Translations under genes and position numbers: made by a program
Shown: one piece after another, positions 53,993 to 59,717 of the stretch
Layout: each line of letters starts with the position of its first letter
Position numbering within the stretch: the stretch's first letter is position 1
The notes under the pieces: generated by a model
Seen by the model: only the letters and a program-made list of their open reading frames with translations
The model's database searches: none
What the model was told of the DNA's origin: nothing
IMG/VR virus record: IMGVR_UViG_2693429768_000001
Location: 1-64,000 of that record
DNA from: a virus
Lineage: Duplodnaviria; Heunggongvirae; Uroviricota; Caudoviricetes
Reading direction: 5' to 3' (one strand)
DNA length: 64,000 nt

Positions 53993-54226
53993 ATGGGAAA
54001 AATAACTTTTGTAGTCGAATTTGAGGATGGCAAAGAGCCACCTGTTAGCGCCAATCTTGATGTTGCTGGTGGCAGGCTTGTTTCGGTTCTATTTGGTGAC
54101 TACCGAGATGATTTCTTCCAACCAGAAGAAGTTGATGTAGTGCGAGAAGCATTAAATGAGCTAAGTGTTGATAACGATGATGCTCATGCGGAAATCATCA
54201 AAAAAATGGAATTGCTAACTTACTAA
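53993..54226 (+). CDS. Small acidic protein, 77 aa
   Basis: ATG 53993; in frame with track ORF 53975..54226. Confidence 0.4.
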   Translation: MGKITFVVEFEDGKEPPVSANLDVAGGRLVSVLFGDYRDDFFQPEEVDVVREALNELSVDNDDAHAEIIKKMELLTY

Positions 54227-54275
54227 ATTATTAATTTGTAGTGCCATCATCTATAACACCGATAGGAATTGAACG

Positions 54276-54407
54276 ATGTCAAAAATGCCCAAAATAGATG
54301 TTTTTATTTTCTCAGCAATTGTTGGCTTTGGTTTTACTGCTGGAGTGCAGTTTTGTATTGCGTGGGGAAAAATTATCAACTACCTATGGAGTTGTTTTAT
54401 TCAGTGA
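54276..54407 (+). CDS. Candidate 43-aa membrane peptide
   Basis: RBS AGGAA; MSKMPKIDVFIFSAIVGFGFTAGVQFCIAWGKIINYLWSCFIQ; competes with the N-terminus of track ORF 54298..54708. Confidence 0.3.
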   Translation: MSKMPKIDVFIFSAIVGFGFTAGVQFCIAWGKIINYLWSCFIQ

Positions 54408-54414
54408 GGTAAGT

Positions 54415-54708
54415 ATGTGGAGAGGTAATAGTCATGGCAGAAGCCAGATGATACTTACCGAATATAAGCTAGACCACAAAACCAATAAATCACGTTCAGT
54501 ATATTTGCTCCGGCACAATAGCCGCGTAAGGAATACCGTGCTGGAGCAAAACCTGACCGTTGAAATGGATAATTTTGGGAACTTCAAGCCAACAATTGCG
54601 CTTGATGATTTCCCGCGTGGTTTAAGCGAAAGAGAAGCAATGCTGAAATTAGCAGAATGGCTACAAAGATTAAGCATTGCTATTGAAGATAACTGGTCTG
54701 AACCTTAA
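54415..54708 (+). CDS. Hypothetical protein, 97 aa (track ORF 54298..54708 with later start)
   Basis: ATG 54415 after RBS GAGGT. Confidence 0.4.
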   Translation: MWRGNSHGRSQMILTEYKLDHKTNKSRSVYLLRHNSRVRNTVLEQNLTVEMDNFGNFKPTIALDDFPRGLSEREAMLKLAEWLQRLSIAIEDNWSEP

Positions 54709-54714
54709 ATTTAT

Positions 54715-55089
54715 ATGATGACACTAAAACATTTTCTTGACCGCCCATTATGGGCGGCAGCCGCAGGCTATGACTTTAATTATATGGATTGCATGTCTTA
54801 TACCGCCAATGCATACGACTATTCCTTCAGTCTGCTGCTTAATTCTTTAAGAATATTGCCGCAAACAGAAGTTGGAGAGCTTCATTTATGGCTATTGGGC
54901 TTTATCGCGGCTGGAGTTGGTATTGCTGTATGGCCTTTTATTTTCTGGCTGGTGGCTGTTGTAGTGTGGTTTAAGTGCAAGACGTACCGGAGAAAGTATT
55001 TCTTAGGTGATGGAATGACTGATATTGCCAAAATGAACATTGAAAAATGGACTAAGGAATGTGAAAAGAAATGGCGCAAAAAGAAATGA
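54715..55089 (+). CDS. Membrane protein, 124 aa
   Basis: Hydrophobic LWLLGFIAAGVGIAVWPFIFWLVAVVVWF; Lys-rich C-terminus. Confidence 0.45.
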   Translation: MMTLKHFLDRPLWAAAAGYDFNYMDCMSYTANAYDYSFSLLLNSLRILPQTEVGELHLWLLGFIAAGVGIAVWPFIFWLVAVVVWFKCKTYRRKYFLGDGMTDIAKMNIEKWTKECEKKWRKKK

Positions 55090-56003
55090 CCAGAATCACT
55101 GAAGAGCGTATATCAGAGATTATTTCCCGTATCGAAATGTATGGTCACGGTGCTGGATATACGGCAGATGAAGTATTGGCACTTGCCCAAATGGCTTTGG
55201 CGGCTTGCAAAGATGATAAAAAAATGAAGTTTATCGACTTGTTAGTGAAGGAACTGCCTAAGTGCGGCGGGTGGCCTGATGGAATGAGTTATTGTTACCT
55301 ACCCAGTGTCAATTTAATGGCACCATGCGCGACTTTTGCTTTTGGCTCAGACCACAAAAAAGACACTTTCTTTGGGCGCAATTTTTGTTGTGAGATTGAG
55401 CTTCCAATTGGTGACCTTGATAGCGATGAATACCAGTCAGTTGTCACTCGCGAACAATACGAATCAGCTCTCATAGCGTCGCAGAAAGTCGAGTTCAATG
55501 GTGATGAACTTGAAAGTAAGACTTACAGGTTGGATTTTGGGCAATGGCTGGAACAGCAACGCGGGAAAATCGATGTGGACTGTGGTTGTGTGTCCACTGA
55601 AACATTCATGCACTGGCTGCGGGTAGCTTACGAGGCTGGCAACTATCCGGATATTCCGGATAGTTCGGTGCCAGCACCAGGAAAGGGCGTCACCGGTGAA
55701 CGTATCCGAATTAAGCCGCATGTTTATCGCGAACTGGTTAACCGTCTCCACGATACAGCGATCAAGTGTGCTGGCACCCAGCAATTACGAGAAAGAATTA
55801 GCCGTGTTTTGGGCGACGTTATTACACCAGATCATCATACACAAGCCGAGAAAAGTGGCCTGGAAAGGTGTCACCTTGAGGCGGCATTAAACATTAAGCC
55901 GGGGCATACGCTTGGCATTATTGATGCACTATTGGTTCATAAGATGGCCAGGGCTTTATTGCCGCTGGTGGATGCTGGCGATACAAGCGAGGGTGAAGTA
56001 TGA
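55086..56003 (+). CDS. Hypothetical protein, 305 aa
   Basis: ATG 55086 overlapping previous stop (ATGA). Confidence 0.4.
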   Translation: MTRITEERISEIISRIEMYGHGAGYTADEVLALAQMALAACKDDKKMKFIDLLVKELPKCGGWPDGMSYCYLPSVNLMAPCATFAFGSDHKKDTFFGRNFCCEIELPIGDLDSDEYQSVVTREQYESALIASQKVEFNGDELESKTYRLDFGQWLEQQRGKIDVDCGCVSTETFMHWLRVAYEAGNYPDIPDSSVPAPGKGVTGERIRIKPHVYRELVNRLHDTAIKCAGTQQLRERISRVLGDVITPDHHTQAEKSGLERCHLEAALNIKPGHTLGIIDALLVHKMARALLPLVDAGDTSEGEV

Positions 56004-56362
56004 GAGTTGCAGATCACATCAAACACCTTGAAAGAATTATCGAAAACGGTGAACTCTTAAGAGATCAGATGAGACGCACGGCAGAAGTCAGAGAGGCGAT
56101 AATCCGCAGTCAGGCTGGTAAATTAAAGCAATTATCAGAGATTAACGCGCTATACAAGAACAGACGTAACCGGGCGGCGCTGCGGCTTCAGAAAGCACGT
56201 AATGAAATTAAATTGGTGGAGGCAAAACTGAAAAAACAGATTCAGCGTTACGATCAGCAAGATGCTTTTTATGCCGCCATCAAGGCGGCTGCTAATGAAA
56301 TAGGCATCTGGAAGTTGCTGGTGGAGAAAGCAAAGACGAAGTTAAATGCCAACGAAAGCTGA
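56000..56362 (+). CDS. Coiled-coil protein, 120 aa; last gene of the early operon
   Basis: ATG 56000; Lys/Arg/Glu-rich heptad-like sequence. Confidence 0.45.
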   Translation: MRVADHIKHLERIIENGELLRDQMRRTAEVREAIIRSQAGKLKQLSEINALYKNRRNRAALRLQKARNEIKLVEAKLKKQIQRYDQQDAFYAAIKAAANEIGIWKLLVEKAKTKLNANES

Positions 56363-56436
56363 ACTACAGGTACCCACCAGCACATACAGAAAATGATTGT
56401 TTCCACATCAAGGAGATTTTAATGTTTCACTGAACA

Positions 56437-56574
56437 TTAAGTAAGCCAGTGCATAATTCCATTTTTTACTGACCTTAAAAGCAAAATCAAAACGATGATG
56501 AGGATGATCGCCAGAATCTGGCTAATAACAGGCGCATCTAAAAATGCACTCAGGAACTGAAAAAAAGCAGTCAT
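56437..56574 (-). CDS. Candidate 45-aa hydrophobic peptide (possible type I toxin-like small membrane protein)
   Basis: Manual translation MTAFFQFLSAFLDAPVISQILAIILIIVLILLLRSVKNGIMHWLT; RBS AAGGA; AT-rich intergenic region next to nested inverted repeats. Confidence 0.3.
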   Translation of the reverse strand: MTAFFQFLSAFLDAPVISQILAIILIIVLILLLRSVKNGIMHWLT

Positions 56575-57023
56575 TAAGGTGGTTCCTTGTCAAATGTAAA
56601 GGAGCACTTGCTCACGTTGACGTAGAAACCCAACCCCTATATAGTTGGATTCGGTGAAAGAAAGTCGTTAACGTGAGCTTACGGCACATGTTTTCGGAAC
56701 AACATCAGGGAACGGCTAATTCCTTGATGCGGATGGGGTCTGTAATGCAGACCCTATCTATTAACGTCATGATTGCATCTCAAATTTTCTCCTTATCTTC
56801 ATTAATCAAAATTCATTTCATTTGTGAAACATCACAATATTTAGAAAATGGCCCTCTTGCAAGTGCATAACTTTGTGGATAAATCAGGAAGAAAAAAGTT
56901 GATTCTGCGCACGGCAAGGCAGATAAGCTGTGCACAAAAATCAATGGGAAAAGAAAAAAAATTAAAAGTTACTTTGCTGGTTAAATAATAGTCGTTACGC
57001 AATTGTTCTGGATGGGATTTGAT

Positions 57024-57275
57024 ATGCACGATTGGAATATTGCAGCTAAAAGTCAGGAAGAACGGGATAAGGTTAACGTTGATCTGGCTGCCAGCGGTGT
57101 GGCGTACAAAGAGCGATTGAACATACCTGTCATAGCTGAACAGGTAGCCCGCGAGCAACCAGAGAATCTGCGCACCTATTTCATGGAACGGTTACGGCAC
57201 TATCGGCAGTTAAGCCTCCAGTTGCCAAAAGGGAGCGATCCGGTGTATCAGAACGAGGATGCACCAAAAAAATAA
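57024..57275 (+). CDS. hot: Homologue of DNA polymerase III theta subunit (HolE-like), 83 aa
   Basis: [50 protein letters not shown] collinear with recalled E. coli HolE. Confidence 0.8.
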
Positions 57276-57360
57276 CGGCAAGATGGGGGAGAAATGTGAT
57301 TAGCCCCCAGCGTGGCGCGCCTACAAACCCCGCTTTCACAAACTATGCCTTTTCAATGTA

Positions 57361-57380
57361 TACTGTATGAATAAACAGTA
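57361..57380 (+). promoter_or_regulatory. LexA (SOS) box TACTGTATGAATAAACAGTA upstream of humD
   Basis: CTGT-N8-ACAG read directly, 19 nt before the humD ATG. Confidence 0.8.
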
Positions 57381-57398
57381 TCATTGAGGTAAAACGCT

Positions 57399-57788
57399 AT
57401 GGGCTTCCCTTCTCCTGCGGCGGATTATGTTGAAAGCCGAATTTCTCTTGATCAGCAGATAATTAGACATCCTTCAGCGACCTACTTCATGCGGGCAGCT
57501 GATAGCCATCACCGTGAGGGAATATTGCAGGGTGCTTTGCTGGTGGTTGATTCCTCGCTTACTCCGGTTGATGGTTCTCTGCTTGTGTGCGCTATGGAGG
57601 GTGAATATCGCATAAAGAGATACAGGAAGTATCCGCGCCAGCACCTGGAGGATTTAAGCACCGGGAAGAAAGAGGCGTTACCAGTAGATGACGATGGATA
57701 CACGGGCAGTAATGCTGTTTTTGGTGTGATCACTCATGTCATCAATGATGCCCGAAGTGGGGAATTTGATGATTGTCCGGTTATTTAA
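57399..57788 (+). CDS. humD: UmuD-like SOS mutagenesis protein, 129 aa
   Basis: LexA box upstream; size and position match recalled P1 HumD. Confidence 0.8.
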   Translation: MGFPSPAADYVESRISLDQQIIRHPSATYFMRAADSHHREGILQGALLVVDSSLTPVDGSLLVCAMEGEYRIKRYRKYPRQHLEDLSTGKKEALPVDDDGYTGSNAVFGVITHVINDARSGEFDDCPVI

Positions 57789-57823
57789 GCTGCAAAGTGC
57801 TGGTGCTTTATGCCTGTGAAGTT

Positions 57824-57855
57824 TATAATTGTGTACACATAACGAGTACACGAGG
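57824..57855 (+). promoter_or_regulatory. phd-doc promoter/operator: TATAAT then palindrome TGTGTACACA and half-site GAGTACAC
   Basis: Read directly at 57824-57852. Confidence 0.65.
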
Positions 57856-57860
57856 TGTTT

Positions 57861-58082
57861 ATGCAATCCATTAACTTCCGTACCGCGCGTGGCAACCTTT
57901 CTGAAGTGCTCAACAATGTTGAAGCCGGGGAAGAGGTTGAAATCACCCGCAGAGGCCGTGAGCCAGCAGTAATTGTCAGCAAGGCTACTTTCGAAGCCTA
58001 CAAAAAAGCGGCGCTGGATGCTGAATTTGCATCCCTGTTTGACACCCTGGACTCCACCAACAAGGAACTGGTTAACCGATAA
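57861..58082 (+). CDS. phd: Antitoxin Phd, 73 aa
   Basis: [39 protein letters not shown]... recognised as P1 Phd; stop overlaps doc ATG. Confidence 0.9.
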
Positions 58083-58462
58083 TGAGGCATATATCACCGG
58101 AAGAACTTATTGCGCTTCATGATGCGAATATAAGCCGCTACGGCGGCCTGCCGGGAATGTCTGATCCGGGTAGGGCAGAGGCCATTATCGGGAGAGTTCA
58201 GGCCAGAGTTGCCTACGAAGAGATCACCGACCTTTTCGAAGTCTCCGCCACCTACCTGGTGGCTACAGCGAGAGGGCATATATTCAATGATGCCAATAAG
58301 CGTACCGCGCTAAACAGTGCGCTGCTATTTCTACGCCGTAACGGGGTGCAGGTATTTGATTCACCTGAACTGGCAGACCTTACCGTAGGCGCTGCGACTG
58401 GCGAGATATCTGTATCTTCTGTCGCCGACACGTTACGTAGATTGTATGGTTCTGCGGAGTAG
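58082..58462 (+). CDS. doc: Toxin Doc (Fic-fold), 126 aa
   Basis: Directly coupled downstream of phd; size equals recalled P1 Doc. Confidence 0.9.
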
Positions 58463-58646
58463 ATTAATGGCACGCAAATACAACAAATTGTCCCGTGAAG
58501 CGTTAAAGATGCTTCTTGATGGCGTGAGTCGCCGCAAGGTAAAGCAATACCTGGTTGGTAAGCAAATTGGAGTCAGGACCGCTATTGCTGTGTTATGCCG
58601 TCAGGAAATGGTTGTGCTTAAACAGAGAATGCCGGGCAGCAGATAA
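58446..58646 (+). CDS. Small basic protein downstream of doc, 66 aa
   Basis: ORF track. Confidence 0.4.
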
Positions 58647-58673
58647 AGCCCAATCAGTGATTAAAGGTGTGAT

Positions 58674-59717
58674 GTGAAAGCCGTAATTACTCCATTTGTA
58701 CAGAAAGAGCTTGGCCTCGCCACGTTCAAAGTGGATCAGGAGGTCAGAAAGCTGGTGGAGGCTGGCCGTAAATTTATTATGGAGCCGGTGCCGCGTGAGT
58801 TAATCGAGCACATGGAAGACGGCCTCGTTGTTACCGAGCAAACCATGGCAACAAATGAGGCGTTGCAGCCGTTTTTTAACAGCGATGAACTGTTTCGCCG
58901 TATTGGTGGAATTGACGCGCTGGTGGCGTGGTTGCGTAGGAAAGAGGGTCAATGCCAGGCCGCAGATCGTAGTTGGTGTGACAACCATATTGTCCACGCT
59001 GAACGAGACAATAGCGCGGTGTTGTTGTGCTGGCATCACGATAACCATTACCGGATGCGTGGTTTTAATGAGCTGAAAGAAACGCTGCACAATAATCGCG
59101 TTAACTGGATACTGGATGTCGCCCGTCAGGAAATGGGCCTTTCAAATAGCCATGATTTAAGTATTCAGGAGCTGTGCTGGTGGGCTTTCATGCGCAACAT
59201 GATGCACCTGATGCCGGAAGAAGTCTGCCGCATATCAATAAATAAGATGAAGGCTACTCCGCAGGATAGCGGACCTCTGAAAGAGGCGGATATTCGCCCG
59301 TATGACGATCGCGCTACAGCATATGTTCAGATGATGGAAGAACGCGCCGCGCCGATGCGTGCAAAAGTATGCCCTGTGGATGTTGACTCCGACCCTGGCA
59401 TGGCGCATTTCAAAATACCAAAACTGCAATCGCTAAAATTACCTGAGTACATGGACTTTGTTGCTTCCCGTCCATGCTGTGGGTGTGGAGCTGCGGGAGC
59501 TGGCGCTCACATTACGCCTTATATCGTTCGTCATAGTCGATTATGCGCACATGACATTTACGCAATTCCTCTGTGCCAGTCATGCCAGCGTGATATTGAG
59601 CGTGACCGCGATAATTGGGAGAAGACGCACGGTAGGTTGGCGATGCATCAACGATTGTTCTTTGATTACGCGCTTGGAGTGGGCGTTATCACAAGTCATT
59701 CGTCGAGTGTTAGATAA
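58674..59717 (+). CDS. Cys/His-rich protein, 347 aa
   Basis: CWHHDNHY and [38 protein letters not shown] clusters. Confidence 0.45.

Follow-up and report, generated by a model that had tools for sequence, protein, structure and literature searches.

The segment at approximately 56400–56912 of the window analyzed here, located between the genes pmgV and hot of a P1-type phage-plasmid, is proposed to be a self-contained type I toxin–antitoxin-like module that would found a new orphan family within an established type of system; the probability of this reading is placed at roughly 0.45. The window is the whole stretch of 64,000 nt under study (positions 1 to 64,000 of IMG/VR record IMGVR_UViG_2693429768_000001), and coordinates refer to it unless otherwise indicated. 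The nucleotide sequence identifies the window as a P1-type phage-plasmid; over 751 bases surrounding the candidate toxin gene, a 45-codon open reading frame (ORF) on the minus strand termed ORF45, identity to phage P1 and P1-like phage-plasmids is 98.8–99.9%. Few phages have been studied as intensively as P1, from which the textbook addiction system phd/doc comes. The P1 reference record places the locus in the gap between pmgV and hot, for which the annotation comprises three small plus-strand ORFs only (upfM, upfN, and upfO), predicted promoters, and the hot late promoter. ORF45 is conserved yet missing from this reference annotation; the PGAP annotation lists it in many plasmids as a hypothetical protein (WP_000123562.1). 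A preliminary description of the locus had suspected a type I system from a small hydrophobic ORF beside nested inverted repeats in an AT-rich gap upstream of hot. The gap indeed has a G+C content of 38%, as compared to 47.6% for the whole window, and the hot homolog starts at ~57027. The features of the putative sense transcription unit are as follows.

56437–56574, minus strand: ORF45, the candidate toxin, with an ATG start, 45 amino acids, hydrophobic
56583–56588, minus strand: Shine-Dalgarno sequence of ORF45, AAGGAA, 8 nt before the ATG
56575–56827, minus strand: predicted 5′ leader of ORF45, ~253 nt, with the transcription start at ~56827 deduced from the position of the −10 element
56834–56862, minus strand: nrdA-type sigma-70 promoter, with a −35 element TTGCAA (56862–56857), a 17-nt spacer, and a −10 element TATTGT (56839–56834)
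56862–56882, minus strand: two DnaA boxes, TTATGCACT (56870–56862) and TTATCCACA (56882–56874)
56844–56910, minus strand: nrdA-like segment, ~90% identical over 67 bp to the nrdA promoter region

The exact peptide and the ribosome-binding site of the preliminary description are present at the listed positions, and its characterization as a hydrophobic transmembrane peptide is borne out. The best 19-residue Kyte–Doolittle window of ORF45 (3.08) ranks first among the 187 ATG-started ORFs of 35 to 60 amino acids in the six frames of the window, and a single-sequence AlphaFold2 model (mean predicted local distance difference test score 88) exhibits a helix at residues 2 to 12, a break at 13 to 14 before Pro15, and a long helix at 15 to 44. 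ORF45 is without cysteines and has the generic attributes of a type I toxin, namely fewer than ~60 amino acids, hydrophobicity, and a predicted transmembrane helix. Rare database variants of ORF45 have a frameshifted or truncated C terminus and retain residues 1 to 31 or more; these could reflect tolerated inactivation of a toxin or sequencing errors.

Homologs of the module were sought in PLSDB (blastn and tblastn), phages, IMG/VR (DNA and protein pattern), GTDB species genomes, JGI metagenomes, and complete Escherichia coli genomes. All collections together contained the same three sequence classes only, designated P1 type, P7 type, and divergent. No module was found in the species-representative genomes searched, and ~4% of complete E. 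coli genomes carry one module copy, almost always plasmid-borne. With respect to the P1-type ORF45, the P7 type is 96% identical in amino acid sequence, and the divergent class is ~78% identical in DNA and ~60% in amino acid sequence. ORF45 is the sole frame of the pmgV–hot gap that is open in all three classes. Its start, length, and stop position are kept with zero indels, and the GGA core of its Shine-Dalgarno sequence is found at equivalent spacing in each class (GAGGAT in the divergent class), while the noncoding flanks of ORF45 are 46–63% identical with several indels. The 36 nt around the Shine-Dalgarno sequence are 61% identical in the divergent class and contain an indel. The 31 substitutions between the P1-type and divergent ORF45 are distributed 11/8/12 over the three codon positions, and the Nei–Gojobori ratio of nonsynonymous to synonymous substitution rates (dN/dS) is 0.45 overall, with the N-terminal half at 0.23 and the C-terminal half at 0.72. 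These values lend no more than moderate support to selection on ORF45 as a protein.

The promoter region assigned to ORF45 is homologous to that of E. coli nrdA, and the nrdA-like segment was matched in 5426 of the 5426 complete E. coli genomes searched. As compared to E. coli nrdA, both DnaA boxes, the −35 element TTGCAA, and the spacer are conserved, the −10 element is in register, and the orientation is the same, i.e., toward ORF45. Neither DnaA box varies among the three classes or between these and E. coli. Homology to nrdA ends at the −10 element, beyond which the nrdA leader is replaced by the module’s own leader and ORF45, the only conserved ORF downstream of the promoter. We interpret the segment as a captured host promoter and infer that it transcribes the ORF45 mRNA. 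For this region, an earlier GenBank entry (M95666) annotates a minus-strand “nrdA-like promoter” and a DnaA box, which map to 56844–56899 and 56875–56882 of the window, respectively. The E. coli counterpart of the module promoter is annotated as overlapping the small gene ypaB, which is encoded on the strand opposite nrdA (705–848 of the compared stretch).

The predicted leader contains the most conserved stretch of the locus. Identity between the P1 type and the divergent class is 91% for the leader core (56611–56800, 190 nt), 78% for ORF45, and 74% for third codon positions of hot, corresponding to divergences of 9%, 22%, and 26%. Stronger conservation of the leader core than of ORF45 is expected where sense and antisense functions overlap. 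The following features on both strands lie within or next to this core.

56617–56645, plus strand: candidate antitoxin-RNA promoter, TTGACG-17-TATAGT, matching 10 of 12 consensus positions; named “PupfN” in the P1 reference
56652–56763, plus strand: predicted antisense RNA, ~110 nt, three stem-loops, complementary to leader positions −78 to −189, with both ends predicted
56703–56729, plus strand: stem-loop 2 of the predicted RNA, a perfect 10 bp on this strand, one G-U pair of which becomes an A-C mismatch on the minus strand
56731–56759, plus strand: stem-loop 3 of the predicted RNA, a G+C-rich helix of 12 to 13 bp, followed by a UAUCUAUU-type sequence
56610–56622 and 56666–56678, either strand: outer inverted repeat, 13-nt arms, 12/13 complementary, 43 nt between the arms
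56626–56652, minus strand: inner 10-bp hairpin, GAAUCCAACU / GGUUGGGUUU
56767–56794, minus strand: leader AAGGAG (56794–56789), 10 nt, and ATG (56778), strongly conserved

The plus-strand site TTGACG-17-TATAGT ranks first among the promoter-like sites of the gap in each of the three classes. Its two hexamers are invariant in every unique module examined, with variation confined to the spacer, and it is positioned within the leader, 43 to 71 nt upstream of the ORF45 start codon. This promoter is set inside the inverted repeat. The 12-bp repeat of the preliminary description is real, with the arms extending to 13 nt, as is its inner CCAAC/GTTGG pairing, which extends to the 10-bp helix listed above. 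An equally good outer repeat occurred in 17 of 300 dinucleotide shuffles of the gap, so a repeat of such quality (6% of shuffles) is by itself unremarkable; its arms are nearly invariant across lineages that are ~26% apart at silent sites of hot. The left arm includes the −35 element of the plus-strand promoter, and the loop of the inner hairpin carries the −10 element. The stem of this hairpin is invariant, and its loop varies at 56636 and 56637. The sequence ACCCCTATATAGTTGG (56633–56649, plus strand), located in the inner-hairpin loop and stem, is similar to the CCCCCTATATATAGTGT element found in the nrdA leader of E. coli; its orientation is opposite to that of the latter, it is ~200 nt from the promoter, and it could be an NrdR-type box.

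A transcript from the plus-strand promoter would fold markedly better than its complement. For 56650–56775, the predicted folding energy is −44.6 kcal/mol (z −4.9) for the plus strand as compared to −32.3 kcal/mol (z −3.0) for the reverse complement, and the divergent class exhibits a similar asymmetry (−38.3 versus −24.5 kcal/mol), such that the plus-strand RNA is favored by 12 to 14 kcal/mol in the P1-type and divergent classes. The asymmetry arises because several helices hold G-U pairs on the plus strand that correspond to A-C mismatches on the minus strand. Substitutions within the predicted antisense RNA cluster in loops and linkers. In stem-loop 2, three substitutions fall in the 7-nt loop, and the stem is changed only at its terminal pair (56703), which is broken in the divergent class. 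A compensatory double change (56739/56751, U-A to C-G), the sole one of the locus, is located in stem-loop 3, which possibly serves as a weak terminator. Taken together, promoter and fold conservation suggest that a plus-strand RNA antisense to the ORF45 leader may be made. A second candidate antisense promoter near the 3′ end of ORF45 (“P1upfM” in the reference; extended −10 element TGcATAAT, ~56449–56458) is destroyed in the divergent class and was rejected.

Structure in the predicted mRNA would also limit access to the ORF45 ribosome-binding site. In full-length mRNA models of all three classes, the Shine-Dalgarno core is paired with a probability of at least 0.87. An anti-Shine-Dalgarno sequence, GUUCC (56701–56697), pairs with it in the P1 type, while other partners are used in the P7 type and the divergent class, and this pairing was not retained as a conserved mechanism. 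A hairpin inside ORF45 was called terminator-like in all three classes.

56532–56549, minus strand: hairpin inside ORF45, codons 9 to 14

This hairpin precedes a U-rich stretch, has one loop substitution among the classes, and could be an attenuator or a translation-blocking structure. The frame that follows the leader AAGGAG-N10 differs among the classes: the P1 and P7 types have a mini-ORF of 3 codons there, and the divergent class has a bare start-stop, ATG-TAA. On the plus strand, 56410–56434 holds a comparable arrangement, AAGGAG-N7-ATG-TTT-CAC-TGA. A 21-codon leader frame (56770–56705) is open in all classes, but 6 of its 21 residues differ, the compensatory hairpin pair included, and it probably encodes no conserved peptide. 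A hok-like 5′–3′ fold-back, in which the predicted 5′ end forms a 10-bp pairing with the region after the stop codon, is predicted for the P1 type and was dropped because the 5′ partner differs in the P7 type.

These elements suggest the following mechanism. The nrdA promoter copy with its two DnaA boxes would drive a minus-strand mRNA composed of a structured leader of ~250 nt and ORF45, and this mRNA would be poorly translatable. The stronger, constitutive plus-strand promoter would produce the three-hairpin RNA of ~110 nt, which would match the middle part of the leader with full complementarity, and sense–antisense pairing would keep ORF45 untranslated and/or mark the mRNA for cleavage. 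Upon loss of the element or of the short-lived RNA, the peptide would be made, insert into the inner membrane, and harm the cell as a membrane-active toxin. The type I reading of the preliminary description is thus supported in part: the short hydrophobic peptide beside structured RNA holds, and the layout gains a peptide promoter copied from nrdA, an invariant opposite-strand promoter set in the inverted repeat, and a leader more conserved than the ORF. A type I system is defined by a toxic peptide, an antisense RNA, and repression by that RNA, all of which are predictions for this locus, and support for selection on the peptide is moderate, as given above. A further proposal is that P1-type plasmids took the host nrdA/DnaA promoter for a new membrane-toxin family, whose output would report the DnaA-ATP level or replication-initiation status of the cell. 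We regard this extension as doubtful.

Several observations weigh against a type I toxin–antitoxin module at this locus. Among protein families, Pfam, NCBIfam, and PHROGs contained no toxin family matching ORF45, with only noise-level hits to unrelated transmembrane families, and an exhaustive HMMER search of 1.84 billion representatives recovered ORF45’s own family only. Among RNA families, an Rfam search of 54000–59000 on both strands, at E-values up to 1, gave no match to an antitoxin RNA (Sok, RdlD, IstR, Sib, OhsC, OrzO, AgrB, and others). The literature searched makes no mention of the ORF45 peptide or of a type I system in P1. At the RNA level, covariation is not significant, the single compensatory pair being matched by 85 of 500 shuffles, and the divergent-class substitution at 56677 suits pairing on the minus strand rather than on the plus strand. 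A terminator scan did not call the terminator proposed for the antisense RNA, and the U-tract there is interrupted, leaving the 3′ end of this RNA uncertain, and no terminator was found for the ORF45 mRNA. The predicted partner of the Shine-Dalgarno sequence is not the same across classes. At the protein level, random mutation to the observed extent leaves the ORF45 frame intact 13% of the time, and among the intact simulated ORFs, the amino acid similarity and hydrophobicity of ORF45 are not significantly above random. The covariation and dN/dS tests have low power, since the collections searched hold only three sequence classes.

The lack of a recognized type I family, as stated in the preliminary description, was upheld in the toxin-family search, in which LdrD and Hok controls matched their own families. 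ORF45 had no profile match to TisB, Ibs, ShoB, DinQ, ZorO, or other curated type I toxins of Pfam and NCBIfam. For Hok/Gef, neither a Pfam nor a PHROG match to ORF45 was obtained, while the Hok control matched phrog_251 at 4e-14. Weak matches to phrog_1184 and phrog_17047 differed between variants and were treated as transmembrane-composition noise. Similarity to Ldr was compared using real Ldr sequences from 25 genomes. The Ldr profile of Pfam (PF13940) did not match the P1, P7, or divergent variants at E-values up to 10, as compared to 93.7 bits for the LdrD control. A local hidden Markov model built from 16 Ldr sequences scored ORF45 at 4.5 to 6.0 bits (empirical p 0.005–0.02), the Smith–Waterman score against LdrD was 37 as compared to 18.9 ± 3.8 for shuffles, and hhalign assigned a probability of 7%. 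This similarity is weak and insufficient for membership of ORF45 in the Ldr family. According to Fozo et al. (PMC2887945), the signature of the Ldr/Fst group is a Trp placed immediately behind the helix, with a cluster of charged residues next to it. ORF45 lacks this signature: its invariant Trp43 lies ~10 residues past the helix with just LT or LI after it, and its charged residues (R/K34 and K37) precede Trp43.

One alternative, which we consider unlikely and nonetheless the best placed of the rival explanations, is that ORF45 is untranslated and that the function of the locus resides in RNAs or DNA sites, i.e., interference between the convergent promoters, a plus-strand small RNA acting elsewhere, and/or the DnaA-binding boxes. 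The far greater conservation of the leader, the invariance of the DnaA boxes, and the better folding of the plus-strand RNA all suit this explanation, as do the divergence of ORF45 near the silent-site rate of hot (22% versus 26%), the frame preservation at p ~0.13, and an amino acid conservation no better than that left by random mutation. Against a noncoding function stand a start codon, a correctly spaced GGA-core Shine-Dalgarno sequence, a stop, and an indel-free frame that are all kept between flanks that have diverged with indels. The extreme hydrophobicity of ORF45 for its size and the low dN/dS of its N-terminal half likewise argue for a translated product.

The same sequence evidence that points to a toxin–antitoxin module would also fit a real small membrane protein under leader and antisense control that is not a toxin, with a role in the lysogen such as modulation of a membrane protein or of a response to replication stress; this explanation, too, is improbable in our estimate and comes second among the alternatives. 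Many small bacterial membrane proteins have physiological roles of this kind. An nrdA/DnaA-type promoter suggests regulated rather than leak-proof expression, the neighboring genes hot and humD have replication and repair functions, and both the fast evolution of the C-terminal half and the rare C-terminal frameshift variants are compatible with a nontoxic product. On the other hand, very hydrophobic peptides of such a size behind long structured leaders that face strong antisense promoters are characteristically type I toxins, in line with the review and search criteria of PMC2887945, and the module comes without an attached partner gene or operon.

A role for the inverted-repeat arms as protein operators that flank and control the plus-strand promoter, rather than as RNA helices, is very unlikely. 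Each arm contains a near-palindrome, ACGTYRACGT, that is self-complementary, the two being ~54 bp apart, and the near invariance of the arms and the overlap of the left arm with the −35 hexamer would be consistent with operator function. However, the exact motif is found nowhere else in the 64-kb window, and its one-mismatch occurrences number 12 as compared to 6.5 ± 2.7 expected, a count reached in 7 of 100 shuffles. No regulator gene belongs to the module, and the arms pair in both RNA models.

The three ORFs of the reference annotation are located as follows.

56544–56657, plus strand: upfM, broken by stops or frameshifts in the divergent class
56673–56870, plus strand: upfN, broken by stops or frameshifts in the divergent and P7 classes
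56848–56988, plus strand: upfO, broken by stops or frameshifts in the divergent and P7 classes

From these disruptions, upfM, upfN, and upfO are probably not genes, and the explanation that the reference annotation is right, with UpfM, UpfN, and UpfO encoded or the plus-strand promoter serving hot and ORF45 incidental, is hardly credible: the P1 record does give these ORFs predicted promoters and upfM has its own PHROG family, but that PHROG match merely reflects copies of the same annotation, and P7 has the module without an adjoining hot. Published CRISPRi and deletion data for upfN and upfO, and deletion data for upfM, indicate that the three are dispensable for lytic growth (PMC10695390); such data have no bearing on a module acting in lysogeny or maintenance.

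The module behaves as a unit in its genomic setting. The segment shared across contexts is ~56400–56912, which in P1 is flanked by pmgV and hot. In P7, other small ORFs and an IS903 copy follow the module (P7 stretch 2001–3941), and in the divergent class, the left neighbor of the module differs. Retention of its identity in three flanking contexts (P1, P7, and divergent) argues against a plus-strand promoter that merely serves hot. In RCS47 and D6, an unrelated minus-strand gene of 117 amino acids directly upstream of hot replaces the module (2118–2468 of each stretch), and the site thus acts as a position at which cassettes are exchanged. The interval pmgT–humD has been listed as a hypervariable region of P1-like plasmids (PMC9603915). 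The phd/doc addiction genes are 1.3 kb from the ORF45 module. The LexA-regulated gene lxr (573 nt), placed between hot and humD by the P1 reference, is missing here (window 57275–57399), and humD starts 123 nt after hot in the window. The P1 LexA site sits at lxr/humD, and no LexA box is found within the module.

In the reference P1 gap, the three annotated plus-strand ORFs thus fail the comparison, and the sole conserved ORF is absent from the annotation. If the type I toxin–antitoxin reading is correct, ORF45 would represent a new orphan toxin family, and P1-type phage-plasmids would possess a second, RNA-controlled maintenance or defense function. P1-type plasmids, which frequently carry resistance genes, occur in ~4% of complete E. 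coli genomes. The module would also be a clear example of a host cell-cycle promoter borrowed by a mobile element, the copied nrdA promoter being its unusual feature.

The proposed module is reminiscent of several known systems. As in ldr/rdl of E. coli, a small hydrophobic peptide is encoded behind a long leader, and the antisense gene, which is a candidate in the ORF45 module, is located on the other strand inside the leader, shortly before the ribosome-binding site of the toxin and without overlap of the ORF. In this proven system, the start of rdlD is 49 nt before the ldrD ATG, as compared to 78 nt before the ORF45 ATG for the predicted antisense start, and the Ldr peptides and ORF45 have in common a weak motif (L-x-A-P-V/I-I/L ... 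I/V-L-A). In contrast, ORF45 has 45 amino acids and no FWHD motif while Ldr has 35 amino acids, the antisense RNA predicted here is ~110 nt as compared to ~65 nt for Rdl, and the ORF45 module resides on a phage-plasmid without tandem repeats.

The hok/sok system is borne by mobile elements and has a long structured toxin leader, an antisense promoter inside the leader that fires back toward the toxin promoter, and a reading frame or Shine-Dalgarno sequence in the leader upstream of the toxin ORF. The layout of the ORF45 module resembles it in being borne by a mobile element, in the long structured leader, in the leader-internal candidate antisense promoter, which would likewise fire back toward the toxin promoter, and in the upstream leader Shine-Dalgarno sequence and frame. 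Unlike in hok/sok, the leader frame does not overlap ORF45, the leader peptide is not conserved, and the P1-type 5′–3′ fold-back is lost in the P7 type. The phd/doc system shares both the element and the neighborhood with the ORF45 module, and both are presumed to serve plasmid maintenance or accessory functions; phd/doc is a type II system, with a protein antitoxin and a Fic-family kinase toxin, and thus of a different class.

The toxin promoters of tisB/istR-1 and dinQ/agrB are wired to LexA, and the antisense RNAs of these systems target the leader far upstream of the ribosome-binding site. The ORF45 module differs in having no sequence similarity to either and in a predicted antisense RNA that is fully cis-encoded. 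It resembles them in that this RNA would likewise be aimed at the leader far upstream of the ribosome-binding site and in the presence of sites for a host DNA-status regulator at the toxin promoter, here the DnaA boxes of the copied nrdA promoter. If these boxes do couple ORF45 to replication initiation, the module would constitute an addiction or abortive switch tied to the host cell cycle, placed beside phd/doc and different from those type I toxins that are wired to LexA.

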